From the IMG/VR virus record IMGVR_UViG_3300042940_001591: 64,000 bases of DNA, one strand, 5' to 3'. The notes under the pieces are model-generated. The model made no database searches and was not told where the DNA came from. It worked only from the letters and a program-made list of their open reading frames with translations. This document shows positions 591 through 21,694 of the stretch, piece by piece (position 1 is the first letter of the stretch; each line of letters begins with the position of its first letter). This DNA is from a virus (taxonomy: Duplodnaviria > Caudoviricetes). Position numbers and translations under genes: made by a program.

Positions 591-836
591 ATGAGTCAAT
601 TTATTGAATCTTATTTTAAAATAATCTCACAAAAAAAAACAAAAATGAAATTTAGTTCACACTTATTTAAAAATCAATGGGCTGTATACCCATTACCTTT
701 TGCATATATCTATTTTGAAACATGTGAACCAGAATCACATAAAACATTACTTGAAAATAAAATATGTGCGGTGTACTTGTCTTTTAATTGGTTAAAATGG
801 ACTTACAATGTTGGATTTTATAAACCTATTAGATAA
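591..836 (+). CDS. hypothetical protein
   Basis: ORF abuts both neighbours. Confidence 0.5.
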   Translation: MSQFIESYFKIISQKKTKMKFSSHLFKNQWAVYPLPFAYIYFETCEPESHKTLLENKICAVYLSFNWLKWTYNVGFYKPIR

Positions 837-2044
837 TGTTGGAAATTTTACAGAAATACCATACTGATGGTTTGTTACATAAACAAACTCACCCAACTCT
901 TGATTTAACTATTTGGAATTATTCACCAAAAGTTCAGTATGAAAGATTATGGGATGAGATTACTTTGCAATGTCGTGGATTGGTAACCAACTCAAAAGGA
1001 AAAATTGTTGCAAGACCGTTTAAGAAATTCTTCAACTACGAAGAACATAAATCAGAAGACATCCCAAATGAAGATTATGTTGTCTATGAAAAAATGGATG
1101 GTTCTTTAGGTATTCTCTTTTATTACGAATACGAATTGAGTGATGAAAGGAGATACAACATATGGTTTAATAATAATTACGAAACGGGCATGGAAAGGTT
1201 TTTTGACCCGAACAACTTACCTGATTATGATAATTCATATTATGAACCAACACCAAAGACTAAGGGTGAATGGATAATGGCAACTCGTGGGTCATTCACA
1301 TCACCACAAGCAATTAAGGGAAAAGAAATTCTTGATAACAAATATGATGTAAGTTCTTTAAGTAAAAAAAGAACCTATTTGTTTGAGATTATTTATCCCG
1401 AAAATCGTATCGTTGTTAATTATGGTAATGAAGAAAAGTTAGTTCTTCTTGGTGTTATAGATACCGATAGTGGTGAGGAGTTACCCAATAGTTCAATATT
1501 TTTTATGCAAGAACAAGGTTTTGAAGTTGTAACAACGTACAAAACTTGGGGCGAAGGATATGACTTATTGAAAGAAGAAATATCTAAAGACAAGGAAGGT
1601 TATGTCATTCGTTTCAATAATGGTTTCCGTATGAAAATTAAAGGAGAAGAATATGTTAGACTTCACAAAATTTTAACCAACGTATCAAATAGAGATATAT
1701 GGGAATATTTGAAAGATAATAAACCATTTGATGAACTACTTGAAAAAGTTCCGGACGAATTTAATCAATGGGTTAAAGAAACTGTTCGAGATTTAAGATA
1801 TGCTTGTTTTCAACTAAGAGAACGTGCAGGTAAATTACATGATGGTTTTAGATATGGAAAATTTAATGACAGGGGCCCTGAGCCATCTAAAAAAGAATTT
1901 GCCGAATTTGTTATGAAACAACAAAAAGTTTTACATGCGATTATGTTCGCAATGTGGAATGGAAATAATGAAAAAGTCGATGACATAATTTGGAAAATAG
2001 TTAAACCAGAATATTCAAAACCATTTAAGAAAGATGAAAACTGA
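836..2044 (+). CDS. rnlA: T4 Rnl1-like RNA ligase
   Basis: Adenylation motif EKMDGS, CRGLV..ARPFKKFFN, ATRGSF, FEII, EGYV..MKIK. Confidence 0.85.
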   Translation: MLEILQKYHTDGLLHKQTHPTLDLTIWNYSPKVQYERLWDEITLQCRGLVTNSKGKIVARPFKKFFNYEEHKSEDIPNEDYVVYEKMDGSLGILFYYEYELSDERRYNIWFNNNYETGMERFFDPNNLPDYDNSYYEPTPKTKGEWIMATRGSFTSPQAIKGKEILDNKYDVSSLSKKRTYLFEIIYPENRIVVNYGNEEKLVLLGVIDTDSGEELPNSSIFFMQEQGFEVVTTYKTWGEGYDLLKEEISKDKEGYVIRFNNGFRMKIKGEEYVRLHKILTNVSNRDIWEYLKDNKPFDELLEKVPDEFNQWVKETVRDLRYACFQLRERAGKLHDGFRYGKFNDRGPEPSKKEFAEFVMKQQKVLHAIMFAMWNGNNEKVDDIIWKIVKPEYSKPFKKDEN

Positions 2045-15321: not shown

Positions 15322-15396
15322 AGGGTAATGGACTAATGGCTAAGTCACTTGCTTTGGGAGCAAGGCATCATGGAGGTTCGAGTCCTCTTTACCCTA
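15322..15396 (+). tRNA. tRNA-Pro(TGG)
   Basis: Cloverleaf AGGGTAA/TTACCCT, loop TTTGGGA, T loop TTCGAGT. Confidence 0.85.
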
Positions 15397-15401
15397 CAAA
15401 C

Positions 15402-15473
15402 GCTGATTTAGCTCAGAGGTAGAGCACGAAGCTGTTAACTTCGGGGTCCAGATATCGTAATTCTGAATCAGCG
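15402..15473 (+). tRNA. tRNA-Asn(GTT), non-canonical T loop
   Basis: GCTGATT/AATCAGC, loop CTGTTAA; T arm CAGAT-ATCGTAA-TTCTG. Confidence 0.75.
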
Positions 15474-15479
15474 CAAAAT

Positions 15480-15551
15480 GCGTGTGTAGTTCAATTGGTA
15501 GAATTTCGGTCTCCAAAACCGAAGATGAAGGTTCGAGTCCTTACATGCGTG
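15480..15551 (+). tRNA. tRNA-Trp(CCA)
   Basis: Loop CTCCAAA, T loop TTCGAGT. Confidence 0.85.
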
Positions 15552-15558
15552 CAACAAT

Positions 15559-15638
15559 ACCCGAGTGGTGGAATGGTATACACAGCGGTCTTAGAAACCG
15601 TGTCGAAAGGCGTGTCGGTTCGAGTCCGACCTTGGGTA
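15559..15638 (+). tRNA. tRNA-Leu(TAG)
   Basis: ACCCGAG/CTTGGGT, loop CTTAGAA, variable arm. Confidence 0.9.
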
Positions 15639-15643
15639 CATAT

Positions 15644-15714
15644 TGTCCTTTAGTATAGTGGTAGTACAGATGGTTTTGGTCCATCTAGCTGTGGTTCGAG
15701 CCCACGAGGGACAA
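15644..15714 (+). tRNA. tRNA-Gln(TTG)
   Basis: TGTCCTT/AGGGACA, loop TTTTGGT. Confidence 0.9.
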
Positions 15715-15719
15715 CATAT

Positions 15720-15792
15720 TGCGGGGAGGAGGGTACCCGACCAGTCTCATAAGCTGTGTCTTTTCCGGTTTCGACTACCGGCCCCGCAACCA
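15720..15792 (+). tRNA. tRNA-Met(CAT)-like with shortened D arm, encoded CCA
   Basis: TGCGGGG/CCCCGCA-ACCA, loop CTCATAA, T arm CCGGT-TTCGACT-ACCGG; only 14 nt between acceptor and anticodon stems. Confidence 0.6.
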
Positions 15793-15942
15793 AAAAGATT
15801 TTAAAATAATTTGGAATATCTGAAATTATTTATTATCTTTGTTAAACAATGGTTGATTGGGATTTAACGGGGCTAGCGAATAGCGAGAAACGCCAATCAT
15901 AAAAACAGATGTCCACACCCCCATCTTCTGTTTTCCATAGTA

Positions 15943-16016
15943 GCCCGAATAGCTCAGCTGGCCAGAGCAACTGATTTGTAATCAGTAGGTCCTCAGTTCG
16001 AATCTGAGTTTGGGCT
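15943..16016 (+). tRNA. tRNA-Thr(TGT)
   Basis: Canonical cloverleaf, loop TTTGTAA. Confidence 0.9.
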
Positions 16017-16018
16017 CA

Positions 16019-16275
16019 ACAGGTGACGACGGTGGTGTAACCCCACTGTCTATGAATCCCAAAAGATCCGTCTGACTCGCGAGGTAGGGCGGTGAGGGTA
16101 GAGTTACTATAAGTCGGGAATAATTACCCCAATACGAAAATGTAACCGCAGACTATGTCTGTTATGATGTACATAGATGGTACGAAAAACCTGTAACTTT
16201 TTGAAACTAACTCAACGAGGACTTTGTCAACCAGAGCAGTGACTCGGATGGTGCAACTTAAGGTGAGTTAGAATC
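16019..16275 (+). ncRNA. unidentified structured RNA between tRNA-Thr and tRNA-Ser
   Basis: GC-richer, no ORF; helices ACAGGT/ACCTGT, GACGGTGG/CCACTGTC, CTAACTCA/TGAGTTAG. Confidence 0.4.
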
Positions 16276-16282
16276 AATTTTT

Positions 16283-16367
16283 AGAGAGTTGGCCGAGTGG
16301 TTGATGGCACCAGTCTTGAAAACTGGCATACTGAAAGGTATCTGGGGTTCGAATCCCTAACTCTCTG
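16283..16367 (+). tRNA. tRNA-Ser(TGA)
   Basis: AGAGAGT/ACTCTCT, loop CTTGAAA, long variable arm. Confidence 0.9.
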
Positions 16368-16543
16368 CAAGAATTAACTAAGATACTGTAAAACCAGTAG
16401 GTGGTGATTCCAGATTTATCTGTGAGCCATTTAAACCCTGATAGCAATGTTAATTTTTAATATATAATATTTTTTTTATATTAAGATATTGATTTCCAAC
16501 ATTTTATTCTGTATATTTGTCATATTATTAATATTTATAATAT

Positions 16544-16846
16544 ATGATAGATAAAATCACATTATCGTTAATGTTATTTTTTAACACATTAACATCATCT
16601 ATCGACCCAAGTCTTTCTGATGAAAGAAAGTCAGTCAATCAAATAAAAAAAGAGATTAAATCCCTTGAAAGAAAGATTGAATGGGTTGAAGTAACAGATG
16701 AGAATTACGCTAGCAGGGCCGTCAAAACCAAAGAAATCACGGACGAGATTACCAAATTGAATGGTAAAATTGTAAAGATTGAGAAGGTTGCAAAATTAAA
16801 AGAGAAATGGGCAACGGAAGATTCCTTGTCCAAATCAAAAAAATGA
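16544..16846 (+). CDS. exported coiled-coil protein
   Basis: Hydrophobic N-terminus, heptad-rich; TATTTATA at 16532-16539. Confidence 0.55.
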   Translation: MIDKITLSLMLFFNTLTSSIDPSLSDERKSVNQIKKEIKSLERKIEWVEVTDENYASRAVKTKEITDEITKLNGKIVKIEKVAKLKEKWATEDSLSKSKK

Positions 16847-17292
16847 AAAAAATTTTTTTAGTGCTAACGTTACTTTTGGGAGTGGAAGTCGTAGCAAATG
16901 GACAAGAGTGGTTTATAACCGCCACTCGAAAAGGCGGTCCATCAGACGGTTATATAACAGGTGGTTTTATGAAAAAAGGTTGGGGGTTTTATGCGGGACT
17001 TCCATACGGTGAAATAAAAACCCCAAATGGCGGAATTTCAATTCCCCCTGGTGTTAACACCAATACAGGAAATGTGTCCGATAACATGAAGTTTGGTGTT
17101 CTTAGACAATTAAAAGAAGACAAGGCGATTGTTGGATTTGGATTACAGCCAACACTTGATGGTAATAAACCAAATTTTCTTATAATGTACAATCCACTTA
17201 GGCCAAGTACTGTTATAAATTTATGGACAATTGGTAATTTAGTCGGTAGTGATTTTACATTAGGACTTGGATTATCGTATAAAGTAAAATAA
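16843..17292 (+). CDS. probable small outer-membrane beta-barrel protein
   Basis: Start moved to MKKIFL; signal ..ANG|Q; C-terminal LGLGLSYKVK. Confidence 0.55.
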   Translation: MKKIFLVLTLLLGVEVVANGQEWFITATRKGGPSDGYITGGFMKKGWGFYAGLPYGEIKTPNGGISIPPGVNTNTGNVSDNMKFGVLRQLKEDKAIVGFGLQPTLDGNKPNFLIMYNPLRPSTVINLWTIGNLVGSDFTLGLGLSYKVK

Positions 17293-17413
17293 AATAAAAT
17301 TTTAGTTAAGTTAATTCCCTGAACAAACTAAAAAAATTGTTCGGGGTTTTTTTATATCACATTTTTTGTTTATGTTTGAGTTATAGTTCTTTGATGTATT
17401 GGAAAAACAAAAT

Positions 17414-17498
17414 GCCTGAGTGATGAAATGGTATACATGACAGACTTAAAATCTGTTGAGCAGAAACGCTCGTGCGGGTTCAAGTCCCGCCTCAGGTA
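17414..17498 (+). tRNA. tRNA-Leu(TAA)
   Basis: GCCTGAG/CTCAGGT, loop CTTAAAA. Confidence 0.9.
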
Positions 17499-17615
17499 CA
17501 AATGTAATGACTCAGAAATGAGTGACGGAACGGACGCTACGTATGAAATGGAAACTTTTGATGCACGTACAAAGGTGCTGATTAGAAACAAACCGTACAG
17601 ACATTACATTAACTT

Positions 17616-17689
17616 GGTTCCGTAGCTCAGTTGGATAGAGCAACATCCTTCTAAGATGTGGGTCTTTGGTTCGAATCCAAACGGGATCA
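17616..17689 (+). tRNA. tRNA-Arg(TCT)
   Basis: Canonical cloverleaf, loop CTTCTAA. Confidence 0.9.
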
Positions 17690-17699
17690 CGTAAATTTT

Positions 17700-17773
17700 G
17701 GACTTGTAGCTCACTCGGTTAGAGCGGCACACTCATAATGTGAAGGTAGTAGGTTCGATTCCTACCTGGTCCA
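17700..17773 (+). tRNA. tRNA(CAT), probably Ile2 (lysidine type)
   Basis: GGACTTG/CTGGTCC-A, loop CTCATAA; resembles bacterial Ile2 tRNAs, lacks initiator GGG/CCC. Confidence 0.75.
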
Positions 17774-17785
17774 CTTTTAAGTTAT

Positions 17786-17963
17786 GGGTCTCCGATGGAA
17801 GTCCGCAAGAAAAATAGATGTTTTTCATCCATCAAAAAATTACCATAGAGACCGCTAAATCGAGTTAGTGAAAATCTACATTCTCATTGGTAATCATTCA
17901 TGACACCTACCGGTGGTTCCACACTAAGGTTATGTGAGGCTTCGGCTGATAAAAGGGTGTTAT
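17786..17963 (+). ncRNA. unidentified structured RNA, possible pseudoknot
   Basis: GGTCTC/GAGACC, GATGGA/TCCATC, crossing ATTACCA/TGGTAAT, TGACACC/GGTGTTA. Confidence 0.35.
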
Positions 17964-17965
17964 AT

Positions 17966-18116
17966 TGTAGTGTGACGAAATTGGCAAACGTACCCTCCTG
18001 TCTCGGGGGTGTGGACAAAGAAATAGATTGATAATATTAGGGGGTAGACCACCAGCTTGCAAGCGTCATGTTATCAGTTGAATCTCCACTTGGTGGTTCG
18101 AACCCATCCACTACAG
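17966..18116 (+). tRNA. tRNA-Asp(GTC) with 82-nt structured variable region
   Basis: TGTAGTG/CACTACA-G, anticodon stem CCCTC/GGGGG with loop CTGTCTC, T arm GGTGG-TTCGAAC-CCATC; insert 18010-18091. Confidence 0.7.
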
Positions 18117-18180
18117 CAAATTAAATTTTGTTTTTTGAAATTTATTATGTATATTTGTAAAACAATTAAAGATTAAAATT

Positions 18181-18402
18181 ATGAAATGTATTAAGTTAAT
18201 TAAAGCAAGTAAAGGTCATGAAATTGGTCAAGTTTTAAGAGTAGAAGATAACGAAGCGGATTTAAGAGTTAAAGGTGGTTATTGGTCATTTGCACCAAAA
18301 ACCGAATATAAACTTTACAAAAATCCAGACTATAAAACTAAGAAAACTGATGATAAAGTTTCTTCTAAAAAACAATTAAAGAAGAAAAAAACTTCTGAAT
18401 AA
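18181..18402 (+). CDS. small basic hypothetical protein
   Basis: Own promoter TATATTTG at 18150-18157. Confidence 0.55.
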   Translation: MKCIKLIKASKGHEIGQVLRVEDNEADLRVKGGYWSFAPKTEYKLYKNPDYKTKKTDDKVSSKKQLKKKKTSE

Positions 18403-18519: not shown

Positions 18520-19325
18520 TTGGCCGCCTATGGTCGATTAAAATAAACCATGAAAGTGGGATAAAGTGACAAACCCTTGGTTGGGGTAAGTTGCGGTTTC
18601 AGTAATGGAACTTGAGTAGGCAAGTGGAGTATCGTTGAACCTTAAGTACTGAGGGTAACACTTTAGGGAAAGTGGTTTGATGACTAAGCAATCCGAGTTG
18701 TTTGGTTGAGGTGGGGACACCAATAAGAATAATCCATAGAGTTATTGTGAGAAGTATCGTTATCCGACTTTACAATTGCGTGATTCAATATAATGGGAAT
18801 CTTAAAACCGAAAGGTATGGTGAAGTACGAGTGGTGTCGTTATCATCCTTTATTAAACTCTACCAAGGGTTTAGTTCTGAAGGGGTCCAAAAATATGGTA
18901 GCAGGGATGTTACAGAGAGTAGTTTAGTATCGAGTCGCTCAAAAGGTGGCTTGGCTAGGTGACGAACCACTACTTTCCAAATTCGGATAACTAAATTTTG
19001 TTAATTTTGGTTTAACAACTTAAAATCATACAAGAAGAAGTGTTCGTCAGTCGTTGTAGACAGGTGGCTACATAGTCGTGAGGGGTTCACGGCCACAAAG
19101 GGTCTCAAGCCCAATGTGATTTTTAAAAAAGTTCTCTAAACCCGCAAGGTTGAATCAGGGAGGCATCTTTGATGAGTAATGAGTATTAAAAGAGTATATA
19201 ACGACTCAAGGATTGGTTAATCTAATTGACCGCCGCTGATTGGTACTACTCAAAAGGTAGTGGAAAAGGGAAGAAACAAATAATGTCCCTAAGTCAATTA
19301 TTAAGACATGTATTCTCAGTGTTTT
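18520..19325 (+). ncRNA. large ornate ncRNA, GOLLD-like
   Basis: ~800 nt, GC-richer, no credible ORF; promoter TATATTTG 18455-18462 and terminator ~19390-19421; many helices; next to tRNA array as reported for GOLLD; 3' portion resembles GOLLD from memory only. Confidence 0.65.
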
Positions 19326-19455
19326 ATTTTCTTTGTTTAGTAAAACAAAGTGGTGGAATTGGAACGTTTTAAAACCGTTCGGCCCAAAAAAGATTAGTCA
19401 GATTTATTCTGACTTTTTTTTTGCTTTTAAATAAATTTTACTTATATTTGATATT

Positions 19456-20205
19456 ATGAGAATAGTTTGTATATCCGACACACATGCCTTACATAGAGGT
19501 ATGACCCACGAATTACCACAAGGTGATGTGTTAATACATGCGGGTGATTTATCAAATAGAGGTGGAGAAAGAGATGTGACAGAATTTATTCATTGGTTTC
19601 AAAACATAGAAGGGTTTGACTCTAAAATTTTTATTTCGGGTAATCACGATTTCTGTTTTGAGCGGGTTAATCAACCGCACCATAAAGGCGACTACGATTG
19701 GTTAAACAATCTAATGACTCCTGAAAATCTATCTCAATCCAATGTGACTTATTTGGAAGATAATTTTATGACTATTGAGTCACCTGAATTTTCAAGACCA
19801 ATTAAAATCTACGGAAGTCCTTGGCAACCAAATTTTTATGATTGGGCTTTTAACTTACCAAGATTTGGGGTTGAGTTACAAGAAAAGTGGAATATGATTT
19901 CAGAAGATACTGATGTATTAATAACACATGGACCACCAAATGGATACGGAGATTTAGTTAATAATTGGCGACAACCAAATACAAACGTAGGTTGTGAGTT
20001 GTTACGAAATAGAATAGAAGAAATAAATCCATTAGTAAGTGTATTTGGTCATATTCACGAAGGTTATGGTGTTGAGCTCGGTAATAAAACATTATTCGTA
20101 AATGCATCAACTTGTAACTCAAAATACGAACCAATAAATAAACCAATAATCATAGACTTACAAGAAGTTTATGGTGAAATAATTGCAACTCATGTCGAAA
20201 TATAA
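19456..20205 (+). CDS. calcineurin-like metallophosphoesterase
   Basis: SDTH, HAGD, GNHD, THGPP, GHIHE. Confidence 0.85.
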   Translation: MRIVCISDTHALHRGMTHELPQGDVLIHAGDLSNRGGERDVTEFIHWFQNIEGFDSKIFISGNHDFCFERVNQPHHKGDYDWLNNLMTPENLSQSNVTYLEDNFMTIESPEFSRPIKIYGSPWQPNFYDWAFNLPRFGVELQEKWNMISEDTDVLITHGPPNGYGDLVNNWRQPNTNVGCELLRNRIEEINPLVSVFGHIHEGYGVELGNKTLFVNASTCNSKYEPINKPIIIDLQEVYGEIIATHVEI

Positions 20206-21297: not shown

Positions 21298-21694
21298 GGG
21301 GGTGCTTGGCATTGATTTCAGGTATCAGGGGTAAGTGGCACGTAGTCAGACTTCATCTATGACTTAAATCTATGGTGGAAAATTCTAGACGGCAACGTTT
21401 ATAACAACATGGAAATTGCAGGTTTACTTGCAACTTCTAACGTAGCAGTAGCCTAAGGCGAAACTACAATCGGGTCGACTGGCATGTAACCTAGGAACAG
21501 AAGCCTTCAAGGTGTAACACCACCCGAAGAGTGTTGGAGCAAATCTGACGGCTCTTGAAAATCCGGTTAGGAACAGTATTGATGGTTTCCTGTAATTAAC
21601 CTTCTATTTGTCTGTTATGAACTAATAGAATAAACGTGTAGTCATTTATTGTTGAACAGGAAAGACACGGGTTCGAGTCCCGTCACCTCCACCA
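21298..21694 (+). ncRNA. ssrA: tmRNA
   Basis: 5' GGGGGTG, 3' T arm ACGGG-TTCGAGT-CCCGT and CACCTCC-ACCA with G3:U70; tag frame 21391-21456 GNVYNNMEIAGLLATSNVAVA*. Confidence 0.92.

Follow-up and report, generated by a model that had tools for sequence, protein, structure and literature searches.

Several classes of RNA combine a tRNA-like body with unusual appended or inserted elements, and tRNA-like RNAs that left decoding, such as tmRNA, Y RNAs and viral tRNA-like ends, have each opened a field. Bacterial class II tRNAs, especially tRNA-Leu (Rfam RF00005), have a 7/5 acceptor/T branch, a 3-bp D stem, an A15–U48 pair, G18G19, A73 and an extra arm of about 13–21 nt emerging between positions 45 and 48. 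Canonical bacterial or phage tRNA-Asp(GUC) is a class I tRNA with a 5-nt variable loop, G1–C72, G10 and A37. The allo-tRNAs (Mukai et al. 2017, PMC5389517) are irregular long-armed tRNAs with G73 and often a GUC anticodon, proposed to act as missense or regulatory RNAs. In tmRNA a large inserted domain with a tag reading frame accompanies an alanine-type tRNA-like domain that lacks an anticodon arm, and the whole is matured by tRNA enzymes. Bacterial Y RNAs (YrlA; PMC4201824) and the phage T4 species 1/2 RNAs (rnaC, rnaD) are non-decoding RNAs with tRNA-like modules, the T4 RNAs lying in the phage tRNA cluster and being processed with the tRNAs. Introns of bacterial tRNA genes are group I introns located in the anticodon loop.

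The RNA gene examined here lies in a 64,000-nt stretch of phage DNA (the window; IMG/VR record IMGVR_UViG_3300042940_001591, Caudoviricetes) from lake water. The original prediction described positions 17966–18116(+) as a 151-nt tRNA-Asp(GTC) with an 82-nt folded variable arm, and this description was confirmed by the sequence. The features are as follows.

17966–18116 (+): whole tRNA-shaped RNA gene of 151 nt, ending at discriminator G73; C74 follows and CCA is not encoded
17966–17972 (+): acceptor stem, 5′ strand (TGTAGTG), pairing with CACTACA at 18109–18115; G73 is at 18116
17975–17991 (+): D arm with a 3-bp stem (17975–77/17989–91) and a loop with A14, A15, G18G19 and A21, of class II (Leu-like) type
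17993–18009 (+): anticodon arm CCCUC-CUGUCUC-GGGGG, with GUC at 18000–18002, U37 at 18003 and C38 at 18004
18010–18091 (+): whole 82-nt variable arm
18011–18021 (+): arm base, 5′ side, with P1a GUGG (18011–14; partner CCAC 18086–89), a 4-nt bulge ACAA (18015–18) and P1b AGA (18019–21; partner UCU 18083–85)
18022–18026 (+): 5′ strand AAUAG of a conserved asymmetric internal loop, opposite UGAA at 18079–18082
18027–18037 (+): 5′ strand of the 11-bp P2 helix, pairing with 18068–18078
18040–18053 (+): conserved distal motif GGGGGUAGACCACC (GGGUUGACCAC in most hosts and many phages)
18055–18064 (+): apical perfect palindrome GCUUGCAAGC, a self-pairing tip
18092–18108 (+): T arm GGUGG-UUCGAAC-CCAUC

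The stems originally proposed for the arm are real but required refinement: GTGGA/TCCAC is the 4-bp P1a followed by the bulge and P1b, and TGATAAT/GTTATCA is part of P2. The distal part (18038–67) holds the conserved motif and the palindrome. The gene is the last of a tRNA cluster, following tRNA-Leu, tRNA-Arg, tRNA-Met and a 180-nt conserved element. ARAGORN called ten tRNAs (15322–17774) and a tmRNA in the window but was silent here at default settings; with introns allowed and a lowered score threshold it offered only an implausible tRNA-Lys(ctt) with a 56-nt intron. Rfam 15 found GOLLD, the tmRNA (21298–21694) and the ten tRNAs. At E up to 10 there was no RF00005 match, no YrlA match and no group I or II core, and the unit alone gave only chance C/D snoRNA hits with E of about 5. 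The minimum-free-energy fold reproduced the cloverleaf and arm, but its stability was not distinctive against shuffles (z = −0.53). The case therefore rests on comparison with relatives.

Exact-pattern scans of IMG/VR with the T arm plus acceptor, the 5′ half or the arm core each returned the same unit, and the 16-mer of the anticodon arm hit at least 119 contigs. From these loci 121 units of 117–172 nt were extracted, 87 of them distinct; all begin with TGT and end with ACAG followed by C. The anticodon arm was identical in 24 of 25 loci found with patterns that did not include it. In five loci (L009, L010, L018, L020 and L024) the unit lies 4–8 nt from neighboring ordinary tRNAs, in several contigs on both sides. 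A search of the INPHARED phage collection returned no relative of this region beyond tRNA-Met, and the nearest record (G001) lacks the region.

An alignment of 86 distinct sequences showed strong covariation. Standard pairs were formed in 95.1% of cells, compared with 42–54% when the 3′ partners were slid by 1–3 columns; 26 of 38 pairs changed on both sides, and 0 of 500 shuffles reached any of the five measures. The acceptor stem was paired in 99.8% of cells, with 5 of 7 pairs changing on both sides, and U1–A72 and G2–C71 were invariant. Covariation was seen in 2 of 3 pairs of the D stem, 3 of 4 pairs of P1a (99.7% of cells paired), 3 of 3 pairs of P1b (96.9%), 7 pairs of the 9-pair run of P2 and 4 of 5 pairs of the T stem. 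The conserved tertiary nucleotides U8, A14, G18G19, T54-Ψ55-C56 and A58 are all present and invariant, as are A15, U48, G53, C61 and G73. Within the internal loop, A58, A116 and A117 of the unit are invariant and U59 and A60 nearly so. An 18-mer holding the distal motif, the role of which is unknown, hit 22 IMG/VR contigs exactly, and the motif is present in most long-armed host copies. K-turn, loop-E, T-loop and sarcin-ricin readings of the internal loop and distal motif were considered by eye, but none fitted all subtypes and none is claimed. The distal motif also holds GAC, complementary to GUC. Nevertheless, short-armed members lack it, and self-pairing with the anticodon was discarded.

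The same anticodon arm, preceded by the end of the D stem, hit at least 120 species genomes, all Bacteroidota by record title. These include Cyclobacteriaceae, Spirosomaceae-type genera (Aquirufa, Arcicella, Flectobacillus, Spirosoma, Larkinella), Flammeovirgaceae, Roseivirgaceae, Marivirga, Persicobacter, Ohtaekwangia, Saprospiraceae, Chitinophagaceae and a few Bacteroidaceae MAGs. About 140 distinct host units of 108–196 nt were obtained, some in tandem, with five copies in Persicobacter and three in Marivirga. A covariance model built from the phage alignment found full-length matches of 87–128 bits in 13 of 151 evenly sampled Bacteroidota genomes, plus one of 60 bits, whereas everything else at about 50 bits was an ordinary 82–87-nt class II tRNA. 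In 75 of 118 host loci an Lrp/AsnC-family regulator gene lies divergently about 150 nt upstream, followed by sufB, and an AMP-binding enzyme gene often lies downstream. The family is thus a chromosomal host gene that phages carry in their tRNA clusters, and its promoter region in hosts is shared with a regulator gene.

No protein gene accompanies the RNA consistently in phages; the largest cluster of neighbors covers 29 of 124 loci and has no Pfam family. In the window, a scan for sigma-70 promoters and terminators found nothing at the gene. Boxes of the TATATTTG type, resembling the Bacteroidota −7 element, stand before the next units at 18150, 18455 and 19443, although the motif TAnnTTTG is not enriched window-wide (124 matches against 106 ± 10). 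GOLLD RNA lies 800 nt downstream (303.7 bits), and a GOLLD homologue lies within the fetched locus in 24 of 124 phage loci. No complementarity between the two RNAs was found, with RNAduplex z-scores of 0.8, 0.1, −2.3 and −0.7 against shuffles.

The original interpretation, which offered a tRNA with an appended RNA domain, a novel intron removed and sealed by the phage Rnl1, or a decoy, was supported only in part. The appended domain is supported, the arm being a conserved, covarying and retained domain in a family of hundreds of genes. It had been proposed in advance that relatives be searched for the same body with and without the insert, and that an insert that was unique and unstructured in homologs, with the RNA not expressed, would refute the idea. 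No family member lacks the arm, the variable region spanning 48–102 nt in phages and 39–127 nt in hosts and never 4–5 nt. The arm helices covary as in a functional RNA. The shortest members keep P1a, the bulge, P1b, the internal loop and a capped P2, so the proximal arm is the constant part and the distal part is exchangeable.

For expression, contigs from four lake metatranscriptome runs, from four studies, were compared with 17400–18400. One contig covers 17689–18107 without interruption and another covers 17986–18112 with one mismatch, running from the anticodon arm through the whole arm into the T arm. No joints were reported. No run has any cover from 18114 to 18400, although the DNA continues with a reading frame there, and three runs gave no cover at tRNA-Met; such holes are not evidence by themselves. 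Contigs do not prove ends, strand or that the template was RNA. Nevertheless, the patchy cover, with nothing on the neighboring reading frame, argues against DNA carry-over, and the pattern fits a transcript that ends at the tRNA-like 3′ end with the arm retained.

The intron reading, in which the halves would be religated to give a class I tRNA-Asp, is therefore not supported and is considered extremely unlikely. An Rnl1-type ligase does exist in the window (836–2044), and the body would be tRNA-sized without the arm, but nothing links the ligase to this gene. In addition, the insert lies in the variable region, and its removal would leave a class II D arm and U37.

The label tRNA-Asp is only half right, and the RNA is probably not the aspartate decoder. 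Position 37 is U or C in every copy seen. As the pattern scans fixed the loop, the unbiased sample is the covariance-model search, in which the loops among 16 host hits were CUGUCUC, UUGUCUC, UCGUCUC (two genomes), CGGUCUC, CUGUCCC, UUGUCCC and CUUUCUC, the last a tandem pair with a Glu-type UUC anticodon. G34, U35, C36, Y37 and C38 stay nearly fixed, whereas position 33 is C or G in three host genomes. Loss of U33 in a conserved lineage is hard to reconcile with ribosomal decoding, although the window copy itself has a normal U33; its loop lacks the purine at 37 expected of a decoding elongator. Moreover, an ordinary tRNA-Asp (loop CUGUCAC, G1–C72, G73) exists in all five carrier host genomes tested and in 22 phage loci in the same array, including the sister contigs L002, L004/L006 and L022. 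The window phage has lost that gene and tRNA-Glu but kept the giant-armed RNA.

A working elongator, either a special Asp isoacceptor or an Asp-codon reader charged with another amino acid such as Ser, decoding GAY on the ribosome with the arm as a tolerated or regulatory appendage, is nonetheless conceivable. The cloverleaf and tertiary nucleotides are complete, the window copy has U33 and GUC, the gene sits in tRNA arrays, and the window phage has no other tRNA-Asp in its 64 kb. tRNAs with aptamers grafted into a long variable arm can still translate (PMC7590224), so the arm alone does not exclude decoding, and that the RNA does not decode is unproven. The allo-tRNAs, with G73, a long arm and often GUC, were proposed as missense tRNAs. 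Against this reading stand the pyrimidine at 37, the host copies without U33, the coexisting canonical tRNA-Asp and an arm about four times longer than any class II arm and under selection of its own. It is regarded as unlikely.

The identity elements were compared with the published bacterial Asp set of G73, G10, G34, U35, C36 and C38, with G2–C71 minor and G1–C72 conserved (PMC9976931). G73, GUC, C38 and G2–C71 are present. G10 is A here (A, U or G in the family), and G1–C72, which helps seat the 3′ end in E. coli AspRS, is replaced by U1–A72. With most but not all determinants present, and charging not assayed, the comparison does not settle whether the RNA is an AspRS substrate. Class II synthetases such as AspRS approach tRNA from the variable-loop side, so an 82-nt arm could clash. 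The RNA also fits part of the SerRS set (G73, G2–C71, C11–G24 and a large variable region) but lacks C72 and G30–C40.

The invariant U1–A72 suggests a further possibility, an off-ribosome transamidation platform in which AspRS would load Asp because of GUC and G73 and GatCAB would convert Asp to Asn, with the UUC variant doing the same from Glu to Gln. U1–A72 is the single positive determinant for bacterial GatCAB, and a GUC-bearing tRNA-Asp (U1–A72, ΔU20A) is amidated almost as well as tRNA-Asn (PMC1635274). Phage tRNA-Asn mostly has G1–C72, the host neighbor is an AsnC-family regulator, and the only other anticodon seen is that of Glu. Nevertheless, GatB is present in 18 of 18 carriers and 17 of 18 non-carriers and so does not discriminate, and U1–A72 also occurs in tRNA-Ile and tRNA-Gln in these phages. 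The 1–72 pair of host tRNA-Asn and tRNA-Gln was not read, as BLAST with the phage tRNAs found nothing and a pattern search gave only non-tRNA loci. There is no release route for Asn and no obvious benefit to a phage, carriers have asnB genes, and the GatCAB question has a published answer (PMC4206432). This reading is kept only as a remote possibility.

Phage copies carry additions. Their arm tip nearly always holds a perfect palindrome. A perfect palindrome of 10 nt or more was found in the arm of 56 of 87 distinct phage sequences (64%), compared with 7% of shuffles. About 20 different palindromes occupy the same place, including GCUUGCAAGC, GCCGGCCGGC, GCAUGCAUGC, UCCUGCAGGA, GGCGGCCGCC and UUCCGGAA, and in another subtype AAGCGCGCAA, GUGCAC, GCUAGC and UGUACA. 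A plain hairpin needs no self-complementary loop, and six-nucleotide palindromes flanked by A residues cannot fold on themselves at all. Host copies showed no excess (7 of 137, or 5%, the same as shuffles), the exception being a Cyclobacteriaceae subgroup with CGAGCUCG. Cofolding of two window RNAs gained about 16 kcal/mol through a 10-bp intermolecular duplex at 18055–64; dimers were not examined experimentally. In addition, 22 of 87 phage copies, and no host copy, carry an extra hairpin inside the D loop.

A decoy or sponge in phage–host conflict, titrating a tRNA-Asp-binding protein such as an anticodon nuclease of the colicin E5 type, TGT or AspRS and so protecting or starving the real tRNA-Asp, remains possible but was not tested, and is considered unlikely. 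The anticodon loop copies that of tRNA-Asp exactly except at position 37. The Rnl1-type ligase and a calcineurin-type metallophosphoesterase (19456–20205) form a typical tRNA-repair kit, suggesting that tRNA-cleaving defenses matter here, and phage-specific dimerization would raise avidity for dimeric targets. As a precedent, yeast AspRS is regulated by an anticodon mimic in its own mRNA. Nevertheless, host chromosomes keep the gene at a conserved housekeeping locus beside the Lrp/AsnC regulator and sufB rather than in defense islands, no nuclease partner was identified, and the conserved arm is unexplained by a pure anticodon decoy.

Alternatively, the tRNA body might be only a processing and stability scaffold, with the arm as the active part, either an aptamer for a protein or small molecule or a base-pairing regulator. 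The constancy of the proximal arm while distal parts are swapped, the distal motif GGGUUGACCAC conserved across hosts and phages, and the divergent regulator gene in hosts would fit. A mere scaffold, however, would not need an almost invariant anticodon arm, invariant U1–A72 and G2–C71, and G73, and no target complementarity was found in the test against GOLLD. This alternative is also considered unlikely.

The gene is best explained as encoding a stable tRNA-mimicking non-coding RNA rather than an interrupted tRNA. What the analysis itself demonstrates is membership of a large family with a complete, covarying cloverleaf and a covarying multi-helix arm, its residence in chromosomes of Bacteroidota (Cytophagales, Saprospiraceae and others) and in the tRNA arrays of their phages, and its occurrence in lake RNA libraries with the arm in place. 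The remainder is inference. The RNA would be cut out by RNase P and the 3′ tRNA-processing enzymes and receive CCA like its neighbors, because it shares their N73–C74 3′ signature, with A-rich sequence following as in all ten tRNAs of the window, and lies close to flanking tRNAs in relatives; CCA addition and exact ends were not measured. As it presents most of the AspRS identity set, it would be bound, and perhaps aspartylated, by AspRS. It would be kept out of routine decoding by the pyrimidine at 37, in some hosts also by a non-U at 33, and perhaps by the arm. In this view the proximal arm, comprising P1a, the bulge, P1b and the A-rich internal loop, is the conserved docking surface for an unknown partner, and the phage copy is a captured host gene with phage-specific additions. 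The main one, the apical palindrome, should pair two molecules tip to tip, giving a two-headed tRNA mimic that supplements or subverts the host RNA's job during infection; as the host function is unknown, this last part is a guess. Confidence is high that this is a real tRNA-like RNA family with a retained arm, good that it is not the routine decoder, and only slightly better than even for the whole statement.

More speculatively, and probably less likely than not by a wide margin, the RNA may be a new class of adaptor, loaded by AspRS but working off the ribosome and docking a partner through its giant arm. The phage homodimer could then clamp a dimeric tRNA-binding enzyme such as the α2 AspRS, or deliver or withhold an activated amino acid during infection.

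The family occurs in roughly a tenth of sampled Bacteroidota species and in well over a hundred lake-phage contigs, yet it is missed by the standard tRNA and RNA-family tools, and no description was found in full-text literature searches, in Mukai et al. 2017 or in Rfam 15. With phages repeatedly adding a self-pairing tip and a D-loop hairpin, it offers a tractable case of an RNA gene exchanged and re-engineered between host and virus. Such genes are left as unannotated gaps or mislabeled tRNA-Asp, so a covariance model for them would improve annotation of Bacteroidota and phage genomes.

Compared with class II tRNAs, in particular tRNA-Leu, the RNA shares the 7/5 branch, the 3-bp D stem, A15–U48, G18G19, a similar D-loop sequence and the position of the extra arm, and the covariance model gives about 50 bits to ordinary class II tRNAs. 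It differs in an arm of 39–127 nt with three helices, a bulge and an internal loop, in G73, in the pyrimidine at 37 and in a GUC anticodon rather than that of Leu, Ser or Tyr. It shares with canonical tRNA-Asp the anticodon loop except at position 37, G73 and G2–C71, but not the class I body, G1–C72, G10 or A37. The allo-tRNAs have 8/4 or 9/3 acceptor/T geometry, Sec-like D arms and arms of ordinary length and come from Clostridia, Proteobacteria and Acidobacteria, whereas this family is 7/5, with both stems covarying, Leu-like and from Bacteroidota. Like tmRNA, which these phages also encode, it is tRNA-like with a large inserted domain; here, however, the anticodon arm is complete, the insert sits in the variable region and there is no reading frame. 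Y RNAs are closed at the acceptor end, open at the anticodon side and bind Ro, and the T4 RNAs share no sequence or arm architecture with this family. Finally, the kissing loops of the retroviral dimerization initiation site (HIV-1 DIS) resemble many phage copies in having six-nucleotide GC-rich palindromes (GCGCGC, GUGCAC) flanked by A residues in an apical loop, for example CACAAGCGCGCAAUG, an analogy of motif only; here the loop tips a tRNA arm.

A 180-nt conserved non-coding element lies between tRNA-Met and the giant-armed RNA, and other RNA and protein genes of the phage lie on the same strand. Their positions are as follows.

836-2044 (+), T4 Rnl1-type RNA ligase (PF09511, 67 bits)
17783-17962 (+), 180-nt conserved non-coding element
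18915-19322 (+), GOLLD RNA (Rfam RF02032, 303.7 bits), 800 nt downstream of the giant-armed RNA
19396-19414, terminator-like hairpin following GOLLD
19456-20205 (+), calcineurin-like metallophosphoesterase
21298-21694 (+), phage-encoded tmRNA with tag peptide ATSNVAVA

The 180-nt element is present in about 10 related contigs. As one of these, L013, holds only the first 115 nt and another, L016, only the last 70, the element looks like two modules. Its helices covary: TTACCA/TGGTAA becomes TTATCA/TGATAA and TCATCA/TGATGA, while GAAAAA/TTTTTC becomes GAAGAA/TTCTTC. A search of Rfam gave no match. Three RNA runs cover the element, and contigs bridge from it into the tRNA-like gene. Within that gene, contigs from two RNA runs (X16 and X17) abut sequencing adapter directly at 17977, 17978 and 17981, in the D stem and loop. 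These junctions may be reverse-transcription stops at modified bases or fragment ends; they may also come from relatives sharing this conserved stretch.

GOLLD homologs were found within the retrieved locus in 24 of 124 phage loci that hold the giant-armed RNA, usually 1-2 kb away on the same strand. No base-pairing between the two RNAs was detected. tmRNA genes also occur in 20 of the related phage loci. Comparison of 15943-16368 with the sister contigs L002 (4330-4940) and L004 showed that the latter carry canonical tRNA-Asp(GUC) and tRNA-Glu(UUC) between tRNA-Thr and tRNA-Leu. The window phage and contig L007 lack both of these genes but keep the giant-armed RNA. In addition, 22 of 87 distinct phage copies, such as those at phage loci L034, L036, L038, L053, L077 and L094, carry an extra 15-25-nt hairpin inside the D loop, whereas no host copy does.

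Host family members include copies with a non-U at position 33, C at 37, or a Glu-type UUC anticodon. The anticodon loop is UCGUCUC at host loci L267 and L268, CGGUCUC at L270, and CUUUCUC in two tandem copies at L271, while L262 and L272 have C37. Persicobacter (L161) has five tandem copies at 172-nt spacing and Marivirga (L192) has three. In 75 of 118 host loci, for example L181 (2452-5058), the RNA gene is divergent from an Lrp/AsnC-family regulator gene, which is followed by sufB (Fe-S cluster assembly). To our knowledge, a link to the suf operon rather than to asparagine has not been considered before.

In the phage, TATATTTG or TACATTTG boxes at 16512, 18150, 18455, 19443 and 21275 lie just upstream of reading frames, the GOLLD region and the tmRNA. 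They resemble the Bacteroidota -7 promoter element and, although the motif is not enriched window-wide, this is consistent with a Bacteroidota host. The Rnl1-type ligase and the metallophosphoesterase together resemble a tRNA break-repair kit, which hints that anticodon-nuclease defences matter for this phage.
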